From positions 424,763 to 488,762 of the forward strand of contig DDTQ01000012.1 in the NCBI GenBank assembly GCA_002344125.1: DNA of 64,000 nt, given 5' to 3'. This DNA comes from Ignavibacteria bacterium UBA2360. GTDB lineage: Bacteria; Bacteroidota; Ignavibacteria; Tepidaquicellales; OLB5. Positions 2,787-63,527 of the stretch are shown here, piece after piece. The position numbers and the translations under genes are program-made. How positions within the stretch are numbered: position 1 is the stretch's first letter; every line of letters starts with the position of its first letter. Under the pieces are notes generated by a model. The model did no database searches. It saw only the letters and a list, made by a program, of their open reading frames with translations, and was not told where the DNA came from.

Positions 2787-3090
2787 CCTCTCCCTGCCCG
2801 TTTTTATTGAGCAGGGGAGGAATTTAAAGTAAGGGTGAAAATTCTTTTGCTGATATGTTCACTTTGCTGTGATCTTGATTACTCTTCCCCCCCTTTCCCT
2901 CCTGCTAGGAGTAGGGCAGAAGGTGAGGTCAGCTTTTATTCAGATTACTTTGCCACCCTCTCCCTTGACTGCCTAAGCAGTTTTTTTTGGAGATGGCCAG
3001 GGGTCAAACCAATCATTGACCCCAACTCGATAATCTTGAATATTTTGCCCCCCTCTCCTGCTAGGAGAGGGGTAGGGGGTGAGGTTTATC
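2787..3090 (+). repeat. Cluster of four C-arm/G-arm hairpin elements in the capsid-downstream spacer
   Basis: 2787-2820 CCTCTCCCTGC…GCAGGGGAGG; 2887-2930 …CCCTCCTGCTAGGAGTAGGGCAGAAGGTGAGGTC; 2951-3010 with mini-palindrome GACTGCCTAAGCAGT at 2967-2981; 3047-3090 CCCCTCTCCTGCTAGGAGAGGGGTAGGGGGTGAGGTTTATC. Confidence 0.75.
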
Positions 3091-4154: not shown

Positions 4155-4202
4155 GTGAAATATTCAAATAGTGAAATATTGAAATAGTGAAATTGTTTAG
4201 TG
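4155..4202. repeat. 16-nt tandem repeat GTGAAATATTSAAATA x about 3
   Basis: Units at 4155-4170, 4171-4186 and 4187-4202 (the third is diverged). Confidence 0.8.
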
Positions 4203-4225
4203 TAAGATAATTAATCAACTTCTAA

Positions 4226-4260
4226 TTGTTCATTGATCATTGTTCATTGTTCATTGTTAA
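4226..4260 (-). repeat. 7-nt-period array, 5 units (plus strand TTGTTCA TTGATCA TTGTTCA TTGTTCA TTGTTAA) spanning the scaffold gene stop codon
   Basis: The stop TGA (4246..4244) lies inside unit 3. The last two units encode …NNEQ. Confidence 0.85.
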
Positions 4261-14912: not shown

Positions 14913-15119
14913 AAAATCCTCTCTTTGAAGGGGGAGGATCACTCCGGGTTTCATAATTACCGCAATTATACCCTAATCTCTTCTACCGCAAATCATCGAT
15001 GGGGATGTTCTATAATAACAAATGTTCAAACATCTTAAAATTATGTCGCACTGAGCGGAGTCGAAGTGCAAAGAAGCAATAATAACAAAAGACGACCCGC
15101 CGGATCGTCTCTACAAAAG
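14913..15119 (+). repeat. Roughly 200-nt conserved downstream element, copy A (carries a nested insertion at 15043..15069)
   Basis: Shares the blocks GATCACTNCGGG, TTCTACCGYAAATCATCGAKGGGGATGTTC and AAAAGAC…TCGTCTCTACAAA with 17632..17795. Confidence 0.6.
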
Positions 15120-16984: not shown

Positions 16985-17054
16985 AATGTGCAATGTGCAA
17001 TGAGCAATGAGCAATGAGCAATGAGCTATGAGCTATAAACAATGAAAAATGAAT
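16985..17054 (+). repeat. 7-nt-period microsatellite, 10 units (AATGTGC x2, AATGAGC x4, TATGAGC, TATAAAC, AATGAAA, AATGAAT)
   Basis: Counted base by base; begins 5 nt after the stop at 16978..16980. Confidence 0.9.
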
Positions 17055-29210: not shown

Positions 29211-29302
29211 ATATGTCGCTTAAAGCACTTTCTGATTGTATCGCACTGAGCGCCACATTGCGCAGCACTTTATATGTCGCACTGAGCGGAGTCGAAGTGC
29301 GG
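29211..29302 (+). repeat. Three adjacent copies (two degenerate) of the ATGTCGCACTGAGCGGAGTCGAAGTGC hairpin family
   Basis: Other members lie at 15043..15069 and 30683..30739. Confidence 0.6.
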
Positions 29303-29340: not shown

Positions 29341-29400
29341 CTGCCCTCCTTTCCCTCGACTGCCACTGCAGTTTTCGAGAGGGGTTGGGAGAGAGGTCAT
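29341..29400 (+). repeat. C-arm/G-arm hairpin element with the mini-palindrome GACTGCCACTGCAGT (29358..29372) in its loop
   Basis: CCCTCGA[CTGCCACTGCAG]TTTTCGAGAGGGG TTGGGAGAGAGGTC. Confidence 0.6.
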
Positions 29401-29411
29401 TCTTAACTCAG

Positions 29412-29456
29412 CCACTCACCACTCAACCACTCACCACTCAACCACTTACTACTCAA
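29412..29456 (+). repeat. Tandem 15-nt repeat CCACTCACCACTCAA, about 3 units
   Basis: Read directly from the sequence. Confidence 0.7.
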
Positions 29457-29580
29457 CAATCCTCACCATTTCGCTTTTCCTTTGAAACTCCCTCAAATTA
29501 TGGGTATATTTGCAGATTATAATAAAAATAGCAGCGCTTATCTACCGGATTGGCGCATTTTAATACTGGAAAGGCATATA

Positions 29581-30682: not shown

Positions 30683-30739
30683 ATGCCGCACTGAGCGCCT
30701 GACTGCCGAAGCCCTGGCGTAGGCAATGAGTCGAAATGC
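30683..30739 (+). repeat. ATGCCGCACTGAGCG…GAGTCGAAATGC family member with a 30-nt insertion in its loop
   Basis: The insertion begins CCTGACTGCC, the same motif seen in the tRNA-like units. Confidence 0.5.
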
Positions 30740-31408: not shown

Positions 31409-31457
31409 CAATTACGAATTACTAATTACAAATTATGAGTTATGGATTGTGGGTCAT
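31409..31457 (+). repeat. 7-nt-period array, 7 units (CAATTAC GAATTAC TAATTAC AAATTAT GAGTTAT GGATTGT GGGTCAT)
   Basis: Starts on the base after the upp stop codon. Confidence 0.85.
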
Positions 31458-35237: not shown

Positions 35238-35243
35238 GCATAA

Positions 35244-35285
35244 TGTCAAATGTCAAAGGTCAAAGGTCAAATGTCAAATGTAAAA
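35244..35285 (+). repeat. 7-nt-period array, 6 units (TGTCAAA TGTCAAA GGTCAAA GGTCAAA TGTCAAA TGTAAAA)
   Basis: Begins 7 nt after the stop at 35235..35237. Confidence 0.9.
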
Positions 35286-35362: not shown

Positions 35363-35413
35363 ATTCCCCTCTCGAGAGGGGTGGCTGGCTTTAGCCAGTC
35401 GGGGTGTGTAAAA
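35363..35413 (+). repeat. ATTCCCCTC…GAGGGGTG[inner hairpin]CGGGGTGTGTAAA element, copy 1
   Basis: Second copy at 40469..40520 has a different inner hairpin (GCTGGCTTTAGCCAGT versus TTCCGATTTATCGGAA). Confidence 0.6.
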
Positions 35414-35448: not shown

Positions 35449-35582
35449 CCCGCAGAGTCTCTTCAAACAAGGACTCTGCGATAGCTCAATCACTGTGAAA
35501 ATATAATGCTTTTCGTTGGAGTGCATTGACTAAGTCAATGCTTCGTCCGGAATCCGTAGGAGTTACAAATATATAGATTTTT
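35449..35582 (+). repeat. About 130-nt direct repeat, unit 1
   Basis: Core ATCACTGTGAAAATATAATGCTTTTCGTTGGAGTGCATTGAC is identical in both units. Confidence 0.8.
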
Positions 35583-36054
35583 TCACAGCGGAGTCTCTTC
35601 AAAGAAGGACTATGCGATTGCTCCATCACTGTGAAAATATAATGCTTTTCGTTGGAGTGCATTGACTGTGCTTGCCCGCCTCGGGCGTGGTCAATGCTCC
35701 ATCCAGACTCCGCAGGAGTCAAAGATTCATAGATCTTCACAAGAATAATATTATATGACTCCGTAGGAGTCACATATTTATAGAATAGCAAACAAATGTG
35801 TATACGACTCCATCGGAGTCGCACATAAACTGCAGTAAATTGTTCATTATGTCAACATAGCTCCCCTGTTTTCTAAGTAAATCTGTAAATAGCCCCGTAG
35901 GGGTGGTATGTTTGTAGCACGCAGTAATAAAGTTTTTCAGAGCTCCGTAGGAGCGGCATAAAAATTCAAATGTTTCCAAATCCCGAAGGGATGACATTAT
36001 TGTAACAAACCCGCAAAAAAAAATCAAAAAAAACCCGAAGGGTGATATAATAAT
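35551..36054 (+). repeat. Array of 8 hairpin-plus-tail elements (stem 4-6 bp, loop 3 nt, then ACATATTTATAGAA-like tail)
   Basis: Copies start at 35551, 35706, 35757, 35806, 35893, 35942, 35981 and 36033, all on the + strand. The last ends at the ATG of the M28 peptidase gene. Confidence 0.7.
35584..35740 (+). repeat. About 130-nt direct repeat, unit 2, with an extra hairpin inserted in the GCATTGAC/GTCAATGC loop
   Basis: TAA loop of unit 1 is replaced by TGTGCTTGCCCGCCTCGGGCGTG. Confidence 0.8.
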
Positions 36055-39220: not shown

Positions 39221-39343
39221 TATCAACCCTGCCCCTAAAGGGGGGCTGGGGTCACAATTATCAACCCTCCCCCTTTAAGGGGGGCTGGGGTCACAATTAT
39301 CAACTCTCCCCCTTTAAGGGGGAGCCGGAGGGGGTCACAAAAA
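39221..39343 (+). repeat. Three head-to-tail 39-46-nt units TATCAACCCTCCCCCTTTAAGGGGGGCTGGGGTCACAAT
   Basis: Units at 39221-39258, 39259-39297 and 39298-39343; each contains a C-arm/G-arm hairpin. Confidence 0.85.
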
Positions 39344-39373
39344 TAGATTTCTACCTCACAAGAACCAACTATT

Positions 39374-39874
39374 CTATAGAACAAACATTACACCTGCAGT
39401 AAACAAAAACATTGCAGAGTTATCATAATGAATAGGACTTTTGATTTCTATAGATACGGCTTGTTTTTTGCTTAAGAAATAACCGGCTTTGAAACCAGCC
39501 ATGAAATCAAAACCCAACCCGCCCTGGCCAATCAAGAGTGCACCGCCTGCCCCAATTGATAATATTAAGTTATCCTCTTCAAACCCAACTGATGGAATGA
39601 AATCAAATGACACGACAACTTTTCTGCTGAATTCAGGTTTGTAAATATCGATGCCTGTATTTAAAGAAACAAAACTGTTTAGTCTGTTTGTTAAAGTTCC
39701 TGATACTACATAAGATGTTTCATCCTGTCTACTTTCTGATAGTGAAAAAACTTTATATATACCTGCTCCTGTATAAAGCAAAGTTTTATGAGAACGCCAT
39801 GAGTCTGTTATACTTTGTGAATTGAGAGATTCTAAGAGTAAGAATGCTAATAATATAACGGCTCTTGATCTCAA
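39374..39874 (-). CDS. Small predicted outer-membrane beta-barrel protein (paralog family)
   Basis: Signal peptide, alternating beta-strand pattern, C-terminal …TAGVMFVL; 4-nt overlap with the upstream paralog. Confidence 0.45.
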   Translation of the reverse strand: MRSRAVILLAFLLLESLNSQSITDSWRSHKTLLYTGAGIYKVFSLSESRQDETSYVVSGTLTNRLNSFVSLNTGIDIYKPEFSRKVVVSFDFIPSVGFEEDNLILSIGAGGALLIGQGGLGFDFMAGFKAGYFLSKKQAVSIEIKSPIHYDNSAMFLFTAGVMFVL

Positions 39875-40468: not shown

Positions 40469-40520
40469 AATTCCCCTCTGGCGAGGGGTGTTCCGATTTA
40501 TCGGAACGGGGTGTGTTAAC
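40469..40520 (+). repeat. AATTCCCCTC…GAGGGGTG[inner hairpin]CGGGGTGTGTTAA element, copy 2
   Basis: See 35363..35413. Confidence 0.6.
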
Positions 40521-41288: not shown

Positions 41289-41431
41289 GTTAAGCATTAA
41301 AATTAATTAAATCTCACCCTGAGCTTATCGAAGGGTGTAGTATCCAGTCCAACATCCCTCGACAAGCTCGGGATGAAGAATTCTATCAGTGTAGACTATG
41401 TCGATTAATGATCTTGGTAACTAAAACCCTC

Positions 41432-44879: not shown

Positions 44880-44997
44880 TTATTTTATGTTTTTTGTACA
44901 TAATTCCCGCGAAAGCGGGAATCTAATTGTGCATTTTGTTCTCATTACGAAAGGGAGCAAATCATAACATATAGATTGCAATGCTAAATAATACTTT

Positions 44998-45167
44998 TGT
45001 ACCGCCAAACGACTGCGGTGGCAGTCAGGGACTTTCTCACCGTTACAATGTTACCATTACTAGAATCTAACTTAGCGCGCCTGACTGGAAACTGCAAAGC
45101 AGTTAACAGTCCTGACTTGCAACTGCGTAGCAGTTGAAAGTTCTACCAATTCCGCTGTAATCCTATT
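44998..45167 (-). repeat. tRNA-Leu-derived unit 1 (not a functional tRNA): D-arm to 3-prime end retained, hairpins inserted in the D- and T-loops, extra 31-nt subrepeat
   Basis: 44998-45080 is identical to 45168-45250. T-loop TTCGAGT is replaced by …GACTGCCACCGCAGTC…; the anticodon stem is disrupted. Confidence 0.8.
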
Positions 45168-45306
45168 TGTACCGCCAAACGACTGCGGTGGCAGTCAGGG
45201 ACTTTCTCACCGTTACAATGTTACCATTACTAGAATCTAACTTAGCGCGCTTGACTTGCAACTGCGTAGCAGTTGAAAGTTCTACCAATTCCGCTGTAAT
45301 CCTATT
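45168..45306 (-). repeat. tRNA-Leu-derived unit 2
   Basis: GGAATTGGTAGA[ACTTTCAACTGCTACGCAGTTGCAAGTCAA]GCGCGC…AACGGT[GAGAAAGTCCCTGACTGCCACCGCAGT]CGTTTGGCGGTACA. Confidence 0.8.
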
Positions 45307-45308
45307 TG

Positions 45309-45392
45309 TACCGCCAAACGGACTCGAACCGTTACAATGTTGCCATTACTAGATTTTGAGTCTAGCGCGTCTACCAATTCCGCCATGGCGGC
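45309..45392 (-). tRNA. tRNA-Leu (anticodon CAA), class II with long variable arm
   Basis: Manual fold: acceptor GCCGCCA/TGGCGGT, D-arm GCGGAATTGGTAGACGC, anticodon arm CTAGA-CTCAAAA-TCTAG, variable arm AATG-GCAA-CATT, T-arm AACGG-TTCGAGT-CCGTT. CCA is not encoded. Confidence 0.85.
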
Positions 45393-45423
45393 AAGGCACA
45401 AAAACTATTAAATGAACTTAAAC

Positions 45424-45490
45424 CTAACTTAGAGCGCTTGACTTGCAACTGCGAAGCAGTTAACAGTACTAACAATTCTGCATAAGCCGC
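45424..45490 (-). repeat. Partial tRNA-derived unit (5-prime half only, with D-loop hairpin)
   Basis: GCAGAATTGTTAGTA[CTGTTAACTGCTTCGCAGTTGCAAGTCAA]GCGCTCTAAGTTAGG; lies between the GIY-YIG stop and the tRNA. Confidence 0.7.
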
Positions 45491-45497
45491 AAGCTTA

Positions 45498-45746
45498 CTA
45501 TTTGCCTATCAAACTTCTCAAAAACTTTCTTCCGGCTGATAACTTCAATTCTCTTTCACGCCGCATCGCGGCTGATTTATCAGGCTGCTCTTCGTTATAT
45601 ATCATCCTGTACGGCCTGTATGGTTTTGTTGATTCAACATATCCATCACAGTTCTGCTTAAATCTTCTGTCAAGATTATCCGTGTGACCCACATAAATCC
45701 TGTCTCTGGTTTCAGAATACAGGCAATAAACGAAGAATTTTCGCAT
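45498..45746 (-). CDS. Small GIY-YIG nuclease family protein
   Basis: 82 aa; FVYCLYS…RIYVGHTDNLDRR…, downstream Arg/Glu (RRERELK). Confidence 0.85.
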   Translation of the reverse strand: MRKFFVYCLYSETRDRIYVGHTDNLDRRFKQNCDGYVESTKPYRPYRMIYNEEQPDKSAAMRRERELKLSAGRKFLRSLIGK

Positions 45747-47614: not shown

Positions 47615-48267
47615 TTCTTCCCGCCGGACTTTCTGTTCGTGCCGCTTCGCTTTGACCGGGTATTTGCCGAGCCATGTTTTCTTACGGGTTTTTTCTTTGG
47701 TGTGGCCTTAACCTCCGGTTCTGTAACCTGCTGCTCTACTACATTCTCTTCCAGTGCTTTAGGTAACTGTATTTCTTCTTCTATAATAACTTCCTCTGTA
47801 ATAACTTCCTCTGTAACAACTTCCTCTGTAGCAACTTCCTCTGTAATAACTTCCTCTGTAATAACTTCTGTAACTTTCAGGTCTTTAGTTAGAATTTTAT
47901 CGCTTCCTGTTTTAATGATCTCTTTAATAATTATATCTTCTTCAATTACATTGCCTTTGGGTATATAAGCAAATTTTTTCCCGCTTACGAAGTTTATCAT
48001 CTTGAAAAGCAGTGGTGAGAAAGTTATTGCTGTAAGCACAGCTATCAAAAGCGCAGCATTTAAACCATAATAAATATCAAACTTCAAAACATATGTAAAA
48101 GTTAATATCTGTAAAGAAATGAATGAGAGAACTAAAACTCCTGCAAAAAAGGGATTAGTTAATTTATTGAATTTTAAGCGGAAATTACTGCTCAGAATCC
48201 CCGGCACTAATATTATCAACGCCGCAAGGAAAGGCAAAGCCTGCAATATTGTAATTTGCTCACTCAT
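47611..48267 (-). CDS. Membrane protein with an acidic (V/I)TEEV pentapeptide repeat and a basic tail
   Basis: 3 N-terminal TM; VTEVITEEVITEEVATEEVVTEEVITEEVIIEEE encoded by 15-nt repeats at 47786..47872. Confidence 0.5.
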   Translation of the reverse strand: MSEQITILQALPFLAALIILVPGILSSNFRLKFNKLTNPFFAGVLVLSFISLQILTFTYVLKFDIYYGLNAALLIAVLTAITFSPLLFKMINFVSGKKFAYIPKGNVIEEDIIIKEIIKTGSDKILTKDLKVTEVITEEVITEEVATEEVVTEEVITEEVIIEEEIQLPKALEENVVEQQVTEPEVKATPKKKPVRKHGSANTRSKRSGTNRKSGGKK

Positions 48268-52300: not shown

Positions 52301-52598
52301 TCAGCAGTCATTCCCGCCAAAGCGGGAATCCATTATTATTATGTTTATCTCATTCCCAATCTGCCCCAACGATAGCTGGGTTTGGGAATGCAATCAGTTT
52401 TTTATTGGAATGATTGCAAATATACGAAATTTTAAATTCTTAATTTAGAACATTAAAATTCCTATTTATTAATTATCATTGAAACTATAGTTTACATTTA
52501 CTTAATTGCATTGTATCATTTTAGTTTATAGTAACCTAATAATTGTTTTATAGGGAATAGTAAACGGATTTTATTTATCCAACAGGTTATAATCAAGT

Positions 52599-55390: not shown

Positions 55391-55427
55391 TTTCCCACGT
55401 TTCACATTTCACATTTCACATTTCACA
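55391..55427. repeat. 7-nt-period array (TTTCACA x4 preceded by TTTCCCACG)
   Basis: Counted directly from the sequence. Confidence 0.85.
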
Positions 55428-55599
55428 TCAATAAATTCCTCTATTAACCATTTCCTGTTTCACCTCTGGCTAGGCGATCATAACTAGAGCTGTTATTCCA
55501 AAAACAGTACCTTTAATACATTCAACTGATTATTGTATATTATTATTCAATTCTTCACAATTGTGACATTTATTTTGTAATCTTTATGAATACTTAAAT

Positions 55600-60015: not shown

Positions 60016-60075
60016 TTGTTCACTAGAAAATTTCAGAGTAATTTTCGAAGTCCCGCCTTGGCGGGATTGCCATTT
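60016..60075 (-). repeat. Double-hairpin element, copy 2 (first hairpin degenerate)
   Basis: …GTAATTTTCGAAGTCCCGCCTTGGCGGGATTGCC; lies 8 nt from the stop at 60078. Confidence 0.65.
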
Positions 60076-62400: not shown

Positions 62401-62491
62401 ATTCTTTGTAACCTTACTCCCTGCTTACTCGACTGCCGGTGCAGTTCCCCTAACAGTAGAGGAAAGAGCTATGCTGAAAATTTCCGGTATA

Positions 62492-62535
62492 TTCCCCCCT
62501 TCTCCTTTCAGGAGAAGGGGACGGGGGTTGAGGTT
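62492..62535 (+). repeat. C-arm/G-arm hairpin + GGGGGTTGAGGTTT tail element abutting the stop at 62536
   Basis: CCCCTTCTCC-TTTCA-GGAGAAGGGG-AC-GGGGGTTGAGGTTTTA; same family as 3047..3090. Confidence 0.7.
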
Positions 62536-63387
62536 TTAATTCTCCTTTAAAACATGTATAAACACATTTTCAAGCGATACCGGTTTTATCTTTTTGCTAA
62601 GGAGCTGTATATTATTTTCCTTCAGTAATGATTCTATCGATCTTAACTCATTCTCATTATTCAGCGCAATATCAATTCTATCCCCAAACAGCTGCGCTTC
62701 ATACCCGTTTTTCTGTACTATTAAGTTATATGTATCACGTAAATTCTCAGTTAAAATTTCGGCAATGATCTTATTCATAGAGCTTTTTATTTCGGCGGGG
62801 GAGTCGTTCATTAGCAATTTCCCGTTATTTATCATTGCTATCTTATTGAACCGCTCCGCTTCATCCATGTAAGGAGTTGAAATCACTATCGTAACTCCAT
62901 CATTATGCAGGTCACTCAGGATCTTCCAGAAATCGCGCCGCGAAACAGGGTCAACCCCGGTAGTCGGTTCATCCAGAAAAATGATCTTTGGCTTGTGTAT
63001 AAGCGTGCACGCCAGTGCCAGCTTTTGTTTCATACCCCCGGAAAGTTTTCCCGCAAGTCTGCCCCTGAAACTTTCAAGCCTTGTGAAATCCAGAAGCTCA
63101 TTTCTTCTGTCACTGAAATTTTTCACACCATGCAGTTCCGCGAAGAATTCGATGTTCTCATCAATGGTCAGATCCGCGTAAAGACTGAACTTCTGCGAGA
63201 GATATCCTATCTCATCCTTTATCTTACCCGTTTGCTTCAGTAAGTCAAACCCCAATATATCCGCTGTGCCGGAATCCGGCTTCAGCAGTCCGCATAGCAT
63301 CCTGATAAGCGTAGTCTTTCCCGCGCCATCCGGACCCACAATGCCGAAGACTTCTTTGGAGCCTATGGTAAATGAAATATTATCCAC
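62536..63387 (-). CDS. ABC transporter ATP-binding protein; true start probably upstream of the GTG at 63387
   Basis: Walker A GPDGAGKTT, signature LSGGMKQKL, Walker B IIFLDEPT. The reading frame stays open to 63447 and encodes the conserved first strand …AIDIKGLSKAFDTLKAVDNISF, with no ATG/GTG/TTG in that stretch. Confidence 0.85.
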   Translation of the reverse strand: MDNISFTIGSKEVFGIVGPDGAGKTTLIRMLCGLLKPDSGTADILGFDLLKQTGKIKDEIGYLSQKFSLYADLTIDENIEFFAELHGVKNFSDRRNELLDFTRLESFRGRLAGKLSGGMKQKLALACTLIHKPKIIFLDEPTTGVDPVSRRDFWKILSDLHNDGVTIVISTPYMDEAERFNKIAMINNGKLLMNDSPAEIKSSMNKIIAEILTENLRDTYNLIVQKNGYEAQLFGDRIDIALNNENELRSIESLLKENNIQLLSKKIKPVSLENVFIHVLKEN

Positions 63388-63467: not shown

Positions 63468-63527
63468 TTGCTCACAAGAAAATTACGGAGTAATTTTCGA
63501 AGTCCCGCCTTGGCGGGATTGCTCATT
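63468..63527 (-). repeat. Double-hairpin element, copy 3
   Basis: TTGCTCACAAGAAAATTACGGAGTAATTTTCGAAGTCCCGCCTTGGCGGGATTGCTCATT; overlaps the HlyD stop codon (63523..63525). Confidence 0.8.

Follow-up and report, generated by a model that had tools for sequence, protein, structure and literature searches.

The 64-kb stretch of DNA analysed here (the window) comes from an uncultured Ignavibacteria population of activated sludge and bioreactor metagenomes. A G+C content of 40% and the presence of just one HIP1 site exclude a cyanobacterium of the Nostoc type as its source. It holds part of a prophage at its left end, an intact tRNA-Leu(CAA) gene beside decayed copies of it and a small nuclease gene of the GIY-YIG type, two ABC ATPase genes near its right end, and many intergenic hairpins. 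Our subject is a mini-palindrome, GACTGC-N3-5-GCAGT, that recurs within other hairpin structures. It is best read as belonging to a recently active system of miniature palindromic DNA repeats, of which it is the smallest and the easiest to recognise and which resembles the small dispersed repeats (SDRs) of cyanobacteria. As judged from the sequences, the motif takes two forms that have the ACTGC/GCAGT stem in common: a module of 18-31 nt with the outline CYTGACTK...MAGTC, and the apex hairpin of composites of about 55-80 nt that resemble BoxC or triplex-motif (TM) elements.

To the window we added 15 kb of flanking sequence from the same genome (loci L140 and L147). The source population is represented in dozens of sludge metagenome assemblies at 94-100% identity, and strain comparisons in this range covered window positions 1-14 kb and 20.7-49 kb. 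The metagenome-assembled genome GCA_002344545.1 is 100% identical to the window across tens of kilobases, and a 1.19-Mb Joint Genome Institute contig is colinear with it. Sister species entered the comparison as the loci labelled L155-L160, L164, L170 and L171; relatives with about 80% amino-acid identity in one protein carry the label Ignavibacteria. A search with the M28 peptidase returned nine related loci from genome contigs, and from metagenome contigs only 41-43% relatives.

All sequences quoted in the initial annotation were found at their coordinates, and the recurrence it described is real, lying far above chance in a shuffle test. GACTGC-N3-5-GCAGT gave seven hits at five sites (2967, 29358, 45011, 45181 and 62431) where 0.04 were expected, a count reached in none of 100 shuffles, and the shorter ACTGC-N3-5-GCAGT occupies nine sites in the 64-kb window (0.12 expected). 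When the tandem tRNA-like units are collapsed, four independent loci remain in the window (2967, 29358, the array near 45 kb, and 62431), and the flanking 15 kb adds three (L140:4708, L147:19308 and L147:~17740). The GACTGCC heptamer alone is not strongly enriched, with nine copies in 79 kb against 4.6 expected. Eight of the nine are intergenic; six of these have a complementary GCAGT within a few bases, and the other two (30701 and extL 3268) have a shorter arm only. The extended string CTGACTGCC occurs six times (0.24 expected) and the 11-mer GCCTGACTGCC three times (0.015 expected). Contexts of the 11-mer number five or six and comprise a T arm, the loop of a CTGAGCG hairpin, a GGAGTG...CACTCC hairpin, a TM-like loop and the spacer next to upp. 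In viral contigs the pattern CTGACTGCC-N2-5-GCAGT had at least 120 matches, each single and evidently due to chance, so a pattern of 14-15 bases is unable to collect the family.

The hosts of the motif had been described as unrelated. They resolve into three repeat families, namely BoxC/TM-like C-arm/G-arm hairpins, the CTGAGCG|GAGTCGAAG hairpin, and decayed tRNA-Leu(CAA) copies. The motif is enriched in loop contexts: among eight sites, flanks of 25 nt on each side paired within the best ~11% of intergenic controls at five, three of which may derive from one composite element. The notion of a single inserted miniature element proved too simple. What recurs is either the shell CYTGACTK...MAGTC or the stem ACTGC/GCAGT, with variable interiors, and insertion is mixed with tandem duplication of modules.

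The C-arm/G-arm family contributes three composites to the window:

29343-29396, + strand: composite (a), with C-block GCCCTCCTTTCCCTC, mini-palindrome GACTGCCACTGCAGT (29358-29372) and G-blocks GAGAGGGG-TT-GGGAGAGAGG
2952-3003, + strand: composite (b) in the prophage, with GCCACCCTCTCCCTT, GACTGCCTAAGCAGT (2967-2981) and T8-GGAGATGG-CCA-GGGG
62412-62469, + strand: third composite, C-arm/G-arm-like and flanked by two ABC ATPase genes; GACTGCCGGTGCAGT at 62431-62445

In composite (a), a BoxC/TM-like element, the hairpin occupies loop 1. The composite lies between divergent genes, its flanks pair with -18.7 kcal/mol (5th percentile of controls, -12.7), and heptamer/15-mer tandem repeats follow it at 29406-29457. 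In the corresponding intergenic region L155 and L156 have no hairpin elements, and L158 has other C/G-arm hairpins with plain loops. Composite (b) belongs to a unit that forms a 156-nt tandem duplication at 2913, polymorphic among assemblies, and a b-like copy with identical ACTGCCTAAGCAGTTT is found in the left flank at L147:19308. That (b) sits inside a prophage, as had been stated, is confirmed by matches to head, portal, terminase and repressor genes. The prophage comprises window positions 1 to ~9000 plus about 7 kb further left (L147) and encodes a major head protein, portal, large and small terminase, a CI-like repressor and a protein with the Pfam domain Glyco_hydro_19, possibly a lysin. 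Its spacers carry repeat families of the host, and strains differ there in the 156-nt duplication and in elements at 4192/4253.

The architecture of (a), (b), the b-like copy in the left flank and, more weakly, 62431 consists of a pyrimidine block, a loop, the complementary purine block, a short loop and a second G-rich block. In a relaxed architecture search, three plain TM-like copies were found (3048-3084, 39304-39334 and 62493-62533) against none in shuffles; the strict E. coli TM consensus CCCTCNCCC-N3-6-GGGNGAGGG-N3-GGGNGAGGG had no match. Loop 1 measures 3 nt in the plain copies and consists of the 15-nt palindrome plus a T-run in (a) and (b); the assignment of (a), (b) and the elements at 35366 and 40473 to this architecture was made by eye. 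As for hosts (a), (b) and 62431, the term unrelated has to be given up, as all three are C-block/G-block elements and maybe copies of one composite.

At the third composite, which is adjoined by the plain TM-like element at 62493-62533, an exact-protein look-up with the neighbouring genes returned identical strains only, and a 91% identical relative, L170, was found separately. There the two ABC ATPase genes share 4 nt; L170 has the TM-like element but not the ~80 nt that carry the 62431 composite in the window. The upstream ABC ATPase gene of L170 runs through the TM-like/BoxC-like element to a C-terminus that ends in NPTPALPKGEGVKV (L170:6830-6990). Its counterpart in the window stops 30-odd codons sooner and is followed by a 135-nt spacer filled with repeats (62401-62640). 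Repeats here reshape the 3' end of this gene.

The second host family is represented by one filled element:

30688-30739, + strand: CTGAGCG|GAGTCGAAG hairpin with the 30-nt loop insert CCTGACTGCCGAAGCCCTGGCGTAGGCAAT at 30698-30727

The insert, which the initial annotation had reported, is exact when compared with the uninterrupted GCACTGAGCG|GAGTCGAAGTGC at 15048-15069 and 29279-29300. A variant lies at 41315-41337, and other strains have additional copies. Family members (15048-15069, 29241-29252, 29279-29300, 30688-30739 and 41315-41337; L002:19643; L148:9740-9925) follow the scheme stem-CTGAGCG(G/T)AGTCGAAG-stem with a conserved loop of 12-14 nt and covarying stems (GCACT/AGTGC, CACCC/GGGTG, CGCCC/GGGC). 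The 30688 element is absent from four relatives, L155-L158. In an L148 copy of the element a different 29-nt hairpin (ACTACC...GGTAGT) occupies the loop position of the 30698 insert, so that this position has been filled twice, by different hairpins. Elements of the CTGAGCG type also occur in the prophage of L148 and L151 and not in that of the window. A related case of shifting position concerns the unit ATTCGCCTGACTGC-N4-5-GGCAGTTAAT. It abuts the stop codon of upp in L002/L003 and in the species L157, lies elsewhere in the same spacer and in reversed orientation in L158, and is absent from that spacer in the window, L155, L156 and L159. Different species thus have 29-nt units in common at differing positions.

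The third host family forms an array around the tRNA-Leu(CAA) gene:

45308-45392, - strand: intact tRNA-Leu(CAA), free of insertions and used as the empty-site reference for the D and T inserts
44984-45300, - strand: tandem pseudo-units A and B, with periods of 170 and 139 nt, from D-stem to 3' end plus a 15-nt trailer
45011-45029, - strand: T-type module of unit A, CCTGACTGCCACCGCAGTC in the T arm, with an identical copy at 45181-45199
45181-45199, - strand: T-type module of unit B, which duplicates that of unit A in tandem
45080-45141, - strand: pair of 31-nt D-type modules, ACTTTCAACTGCTACGCAGTTGCAAGTCAGG and ACTGTTAACTGCTTTGCAGTTTCCAGTCAGG, placed in tandem in the D-loop of unit A and in reverse orientation to the T-type
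45250-45280, - strand: single D-type module of unit B
45437-45467, - strand: D-type module of the degenerate tRNA-like 5' half that precedes the true tRNA; two modules in L015
45498-45746, - strand: UPF0213-type GIY-YIG nuclease gene (82 aa) abutting the array; PF01541, 51 bits; closest structure PDB 1zg2

Read in the sense of the tRNA, pseudo-units A and B lie downstream of tRNA-Leu(CAA) and the degenerate 5' half upstream. The initial annotation called the units tRNA-like. They do align to the adjacent tRNA-Leu(CAA), but they are not called as tRNAs, are devoid of the 5' acceptor strand and have lost GGTTCGA from the T-loop. ARAGORN and Rfam called only 45308-45392 and did not recognise the pseudo-units even at E<=10 in the array; Rfam found nothing but tRNA, at the gathering threshold in the whole window and at E<=10 in the array.

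As claimed, the T-arm copy matches (a) at 14 of 15 positions. Its placement in the T-loop needs correcting. It lies in the T arm but where loop and 3' stem meet (after position 61 or 62), so that one or two bases of the 3' strand precede it. Against the true tRNA, the T insert is exactly 18 nt, CCTGACTGCCACCGCAGT(C), at GAGTC|CGTTTGG, and the D insert consists of one or two 31-nt modules exactly at GGTAGA|CGCG, between the last base of the D-loop and the first base of the 3' D-stem. Read backwards, the D-type module has the ends of the T-type, which gives the general form C-Y-T-G-A-C-T-K ... M-A-G-T-C of 18-31 nt. Its interior ranges from a loop of 4-6 nt in the T-arm copy to a separate 6-bp hairpin in the D-loop copies, and the mini-palindrome of the T arm is the minimal module, in which the ends close on the 4-6-nt loop. 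The D-loop hairpins are related to the motif through the ACTGC/GCAGT stem, as proposed, AACTGC-N3-GCAGTT being a separate 6-bp inner hairpin within the same shell.

Within the species the array contains two or three units (three in L012, L014 and L016) and one or two D-modules, in steps of 31 nt; strains also differ by a 31-nt module in the partial unit upstream. The T-type loop reads CACC, TCCC or TCCT in different strains and units. Changes in one arm are compensated in the other (ACTGC/GCAGT to ACTAC/GTAGT; ACTT/AAGT to ACTG/CAGT). Pair covariation of the D-type modules was judged by hand, their MAFFT alignment being faulty. L155, L156, L164 and L171 also have tRNA-Leu(CAA) with pseudo-units, and modules sit at the identical two positions and boundaries with different interiors, for example CTTTAA/TTAAAG, GGAAATGC/GCATTCC, CGCTTTAGCG and GCTGCGGCAGCAGC. 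In these species modules are sometimes tandem and once lie in the acceptor stem. By contrast, L158 has a bare tRNA-Leu(CAA) with zero units. GGTTCGA is lost from all pseudo-units examined except unit 1 of L012 and unit 1 of L155.

Filling of hairpin loops extends to elements other than those with the GACTGCC motif:

35654-35704, + strand: GGAGTGCATTGACT...AGTCAATGCTCC hairpin with the 20-nt inner hairpin TGCTTGCCCGCCTCGGGCGT (35669-35688) in its loop; z = -4.2
35366-35409, + strand: TM-like motif CCCCTC-TCGA-GAGGGG with hairpin GCTGGCTTTAGCCAG in the second loop, then GGGGTGTGT
40473-40516: sister TM-like copy in which GTTCCGATTTATCGGAAC replaces the GCTGGCTTTAGCCAG of the 35366 copy
39304-39334, + strand: plain TM-like hairpin CTCTCCCCCT-TTA-AGGGGGAG-CC-GGAGGGGG

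The hairpins at 35.5 kb form a further family, GGAGTGCATTGACT|AGTCAATGCTCC, with an unfilled paralogue at 35518-35548. The nesting reported for 35584-35740 in comparison with 35449-35582 is correct, as 35654-35704 and 35518-35548 differ by the 20-nt inner hairpin. This insert, in the loop of GCATTGACT...AGTCAATGC, is missing in the paralogue and in the orthologous L014 and L015 (GACTA|AGTC), more distant strains that were used for its polarity; GCATTGACTAAGTCAATGC is the empty hairpin form. The copies near 35363 and 40469 do differ by a hairpin, as noted earlier, but it occupies the second loop of a TM-like motif and is not an inner one. Site 40470-40517 holds this TM-like element with its loop-2 hairpin in the window and in L012/L014, and a CTGAGCG-type element in L002 and L011 (98.3-99.7% identical overall) and in the more distant L015, so that two repeats alternate. 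In the 39304 hairpin, a 23-nt loop insert, GGCCGTAGGACTGGCGAAGACAT (39317), is found only in L012 and L014. A further proposed case of nesting, around 52350-52395, is a weak example.

Strains that are 96-99.7% identical thus differ by hairpin indels of 20-31 nt in loops, and exact filled/empty pairs of paralogues exist for 30 nt at 30698, 20 nt at 35669, and 18 and 31 nt in the tRNA-Leu copies. No target-site duplication was found at the insert boundaries GGTAGA|CGCG, GAGTC|CGTTTGG, GAGCG|GAGTC and GACTA|AGTC, nor at the other filled/empty sites. Recent activity in loops, as suggested by the initial annotation, is seen for hairpins within larger hairpin loops, in strain-level indels and in elements wholly absent from related species; for the GACTGCC motif itself the strains gave no precise empty site.

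Other repeats and segments accompany these families. L012, L014 and L015 lack a segment of ~530 nt (39338-39867) that contains an ORF of 166 aa without known function (39374-39874). On one side the segment borders a tandem of TM-like hairpins with a 39-nt period and variable copy number (39221-39322). The family GAAAATTAC-N3-GTAATTTTC is paired with TCCCGC-N4-GCGGGA at 1138-1178, 60026-60066 and 63478-63518, and also at 44903, 52310, 55076 and 38563. On its own, the hairpin (AT)TCCCGC-N4-GCGGGA(AT) has about nine copies, mostly just 3' of genes, and may act as a terminator. A 218-aa ORF contains 6.3 copies of the in-frame 15-nt tandem repeat CTTCCTCTGTAATAA (47775-47868), with a 45-nt difference between strains. 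Intergenic tandem arrays of 7-8 nt (heptamer arrays) are frequent (1081-1125, 4225-4258, 16985-17052, 29406-29457, 31410-31435, 35242-35285 and 55396-55428), several of them directly beside hairpin elements. Their copy number varies among strains; examples are differences of 15 nt at 29412, of 7-14 nt at 35259 and, in the left flank, of 21 nt.

The data favour a process that acts on DNA, on extruded or single-stranded hairpins. GACTGCC is oriented about four times in sense and three times antisense to flanking genes, with (b) and 62431 antisense, and this mixed orientation argues against an element that works as RNA; the position of (a) between divergent genes, the absence of Rfam matches and the pairing of flanks point in the same direction. 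So does the excess of hairpins: perfect hairpins number 179 against 91 in shuffles, i.e. about twofold, and hairpins with a C-GNA-G triloop number 19 (for example at 1138, 35706, 35756, 35942, 38540, 45120 and 63478) against about 1.4 expected from shuffles, with GNA on the + strand in 15 of the 19. C-GNA-G triloops form exceptionally stable DNA mini-hairpins, of which the d(GCGAAGC) of Hirao and colleagues is an example.

We tentatively favour a model, to which we would give slightly less than an even chance, in which copies are inserted from a template at hairpin tips and then undergo tandem duplication and arm-to-arm correction. Modules would arise when DNA is copied from a template into the single-stranded tips of pre-existing hairpins, either at loop centres or at the boundary between loop and 3' arm, without target duplication. 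Later on, modules would be duplicated or deleted in tandem and exchanged between copies, arm-to-arm (quasi-palindrome) correction would keep their arms complementary, and composites would then be copied as whole units. Recurrence above chance, exact filled/empty pairs, polymorphism between strains, conserved shells whose interiors vary, and the lack of a Y1 transposase nearby are direct observations; we infer that the insertions share one DNA-level process and that another copy serves as donor. For the GACTGCC motif in particular, insertion is suggested by the tRNA paralogue, by the 30698 paralogue (which has only the first 10 bases in common with it), by the mobile unit in the upp spacer and by analogy with the other hairpin indels.

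Several points weigh against this model. Comparison of empty and filled sites between strains yielded hairpin indels of 20-31 nt but no precise empty site for the GACTGCC motif, and no pair of sequences was found that differs solely by the 15-nt GACTGCC-N3-GCAGT apex. What relatives lack at (a) and 62431 is the entire composite or cluster and not the motif alone, and (b) varies by the 156-nt tandem duplication alone. Composites (a), (b) and L147:19308 are 41-58% identical in pairs over ~100 nt, with 62431 resembling them more weakly; they are possibly one composite, in which case independent insertion events would be few. No second copy of the 20-nt (35669) or 23-nt (39317) insert was found in ~100 kb plus related loci, so that a donor is not demonstrated, and no enzyme behind the repeats was identified in the window ±10 kb. 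That module positions in the array are conserved between species may be a sign of function and not of mobility. Finally, the statistics on copy number and context rest on ~79 kb of genome.

Some of these points are what one would expect if there were no loop-directed insertion at all and composites (host plus apex hairpin) and tRNA-like units were duplicated whole, their likeness reflecting common descent plus convergence of short stems. The resemblance of (a), (b), L147:19308 and, weakly, 62431 in the left arm beyond the motif, the tandem duplication at (b), the tandem origin of the T-arm and D-loop copies, the loss of entire composites in relatives and the 31-nt steps in module number all fit such a history. 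We nevertheless consider it rather unlikely, given the exact indels of inner hairpins that leave the outer hairpin intact (35669, 39317, 30698 and the nested L148 copy) and the five or six host contexts of GCCTGACTGCC, which are too varied to be linked by duplication of whole hosts. Selection on functional hairpins, be they sites for proteins or nucleases, signals for RNA processing or stability, or terminators, with loops being the places where insertions spare the host, is also unlikely, and more so. It would account for compensatory changes that preserve pairing, for positions and boundaries of modules that are conserved across species while interiors turn over, for the conserved loop and covarying stems of the CTGAGCG-GAGTCGAAG family, and for hairpins located directly 3' of stop codons (after upp in L002 and L157). 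However, arm-to-arm templated correction, which is established for quasi-palindromes, yields compensatory changes without selection. Orientation relative to transcription is inconsistent, as exemplified by (a) between divergent genes and by the antisense GACTGCC in (b) and 62431, and there is no match to an Rfam family. Moreover, strains that are 96-99.7% identical differ in which elements they have, and sister species lack entire elements, which speaks against an essential function. Chance similarity among abundant GC-rich hairpins is hardly credible. With hairpins in twofold excess some reuse of stems is expected, and the GACTGCC heptamer itself is only weakly enriched, but the shuffle tests on the complete palindrome, the 9- to 11-mers common to copies and the 29-nt units at different positions in different species all disfavour it.

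Two further explanations invoke an enzyme. Single-strand transposition of the REP (repetitive extragenic palindromic)/RAYT or IS200/IS605 type, through a Y1 (HUH) transposase whose gene lies elsewhere in the genome, is compatible with hairpin elements that cause no target duplication, occupy positions prone to be single-stranded and are enriched in DNA-type GNA triloops, and insertion sequences and REP systems are known to target palindromes (work cited in PMC3116915). The initial annotation, which drew this parallel, had also seen no such transposase. The genes called in the window ±10 kb include no Y1/HUH (PF01797) or other transposase, and eight unannotated ORFs have no Pfam match. The GTAG/CGTC tag described for REP elements (PMC3733652) is missing too: neither GTAG/CTAC nor CGTC/GACG occurs at a consistent end position in any of the copies and modules compared. 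There is no fixed tetra- or pentanucleotide target on the 5' side (flanks read GTC, GCG, ATG, TCG, CTC and CTT), and modules are single or in direct tandem at about eight loci in 79 kb, with no inverted doublets of the REPIN type. Each element is a single hairpin, unlike palindrome-associated elements derived from IS200/IS605, which have left and right subterminal hairpins, and with 15-31 nt and variable interiors the units fall short of known REPs in size and uniformity. The proposed chemistry is thus not supported by the sequences at hand, and we hold an enzyme of this kind acting from elsewhere to be very improbable.

At the tRNA-Leu locus at least, modules and pseudo-units might instead be by-products of breaks made by the UPF0213 GIY-YIG protein and of their repair, with recombination amplifying the units and scars left at the cuts. 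The gene is the only nuclease gene nearby and encodes a candidate enzyme. It coexists with pseudo-units in five of five species or strain groups (the window species, L155, L156, L164 and L171), and both are absent in L158. It lies on either side of the array and in L171 on both sides in two copies, as expected if it were amplified with the units, the number of which varies within species. (The arrays are located at 44984-45746 in the window, L155:20100-21000, L156:19000-20400, L164:2700-3250 and L171:2500-3880; the L158 locus is at ~19300.) In T-even phages, the GIY-YIG enzyme SegB cuts tRNA genes at RAWTSGAAC and drives recombination-dependent tandem amplification of tRNA loci (PMC13096335), which provides a precedent. 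In our analysis, and not in the cited paper, RAWTSGAAC appears to be the complement of conserved T-arm sequence, and GGTTCGA is lost in pseudo-units with the two exceptions mentioned. On the other side, the protein is predicted to be a bare catalytic domain, its 82 aa being too few to include a DNA-binding domain; its closest solved relative is the UPF0213 protein BH0048 (PDB 1zg2), and it has no match among PHROGs. All homologues recovered come from one syntenic locus, so that linkage alone could explain the association with the array, and BoxC-like and other hairpin copies far from the array are left unexplained. Break repair as the source of the array is thus quite unlikely. A bolder version is a long shot: a structure-specific nuclease, the UPF0213 protein being the candidate, would nick hairpin tips, template-switch repair would paste palindromes genome-wide, and the same activity would drive the SegB-like amplification at tRNA-Leu(CAA).

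Other classes of element were rejected. A MITE (miniature inverted-repeat transposable element) consists of terminal inverted repeats plus a target-site duplication and is usually >50-100 nt; the missing duplication at exact insert boundaries speaks against it. Variable spacing and occurrence in dead tRNA copies speak against the palindrome of a transcription factor. For a hammerhead-like core in the CTGAGCG element, integron attC sites, uptake sequences and GAC...GTC restriction sites, core motifs or spacing do not match.

If the nuclease and template-switch version were true, it would be an undescribed way to make and spread the smallest known mobile DNA and would give cyanobacterial SDRs a testable mechanism. 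SDRs were described in heterocystous cyanobacteria; were the combination of 15-31-nt hairpins, nesting in loops, heptamer arrays and rapid turnover to exist in Ignavibacteria as well, it could no longer be seen as peculiar to that group, and strain series from metagenomes could allow insertion polarity, target rules and rates to be measured from existing data. BoxC/triplex-like elements are seen here as hosts of inner hairpins, and the conserved array of tRNA-Leu pseudo-genes, linked to a small GIY-YIG gene, offers an experimentally testable candidate enzyme. Should the repeats be ordinary structural ones, they would still matter for annotation, as they break assemblies, truncate or extend ORFs (such as the 3' end of the ABC ATPase gene) and mimic tRNA fragments.

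The closest known counterparts of the repeats are SDR1-8 of Nostoc punctiforme and its relatives, reportedly described by Elhai and colleagues in 2008 as predicted hairpins of 21-27 nt with compensatory changes. They are said to insert in other repeats, to be associated with tandem heptamers and to have been active recently; an RNA intermediate was reportedly proposed, and their distribution is said to be essentially confined to one cyanobacterial subgroup. To our knowledge no enzyme has been assigned to them and their mechanism is still unknown. The repeats of the window are likewise dispersed hairpins (15-31 nt) with compensatory changes that nest in other repeats, one family even inside its own copy, and adjoin heptamer arrays. 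Differences are the phylum, the sequences (as far as known), the lack of an HIP1 context (one GCGATCGC in 64 kb), hosts that include BoxC-like elements and tRNA pseudo-units, and the mixed orientation and GNA triloops, which point to DNA. With a host from the Ignavibacteria, the repeats are at most an analogue of SDRs. Intervening sequences in rRNA helices and Rickettsia palindromic elements are stem-loops at helix tips or in genes that keep the fold of their host and occur sporadically among strains. In these respects they resemble the insertions described here, but they are 100-150 nt long or excised by RNase III, and the hosts here are mostly non-genic DNA hairpins and dead tRNA copies.

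The intrastrand-triplex motif BoxC/PIT/TM occurs in E. coli and many other bacteria, where it marks unusually variable loci; in E. coli its loops measure 3-6 nt and 3 nt (Holder et al. 2015, PMC4666352). The order of C-block, loop, G-block, short loop and G-block is found again in (a), (b), 62431, 35366, 40473, 39304, 3048 and 62493, and as with TM sites in E. coli the hosts are intergenic and their loci strain-variable. Loop 1 or 2 of the elements studied here can hold a hairpin of 15-25 nt, a feature not described there (PMC4666352). With REP, BIME and REPIN-RAYT systems (PMC3116915, PMC3333891, PMC3733652, PMC8266576) the repeats have in common that they are short extragenic imperfect palindromes in families with variable loops, that they form mosaic clusters without target duplication and that they follow a logic of single-stranded DNA hairpins. 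By contrast, they have no GTAG/CGTC tag, no RAYT gene nearby and no inverted doublets, their units are smaller with variable interiors, and nesting in loops is not a hallmark of REPs. As in the case of SegB (PMC2330249; PMC13096335), a GIY-YIG gene lies within a tRNA locus with tandem tRNA-derived units of variable copy number, and in one genome (L171) the nuclease gene is duplicated along with them. Unlike the SegB case, the locus is chromosomal and not part of a phage, the amplified units are non-functional tRNA fragments with hairpin modules, and the putative 82-aa nuclease has the UPF0213 catalytic domain only, whereas SegB has a catalytic plus a C-terminal DNA-binding domain. The phenomenon itself has precedent; it is the lineage, the metagenomic strain series and the linked nuclease gene that make an old question testable.

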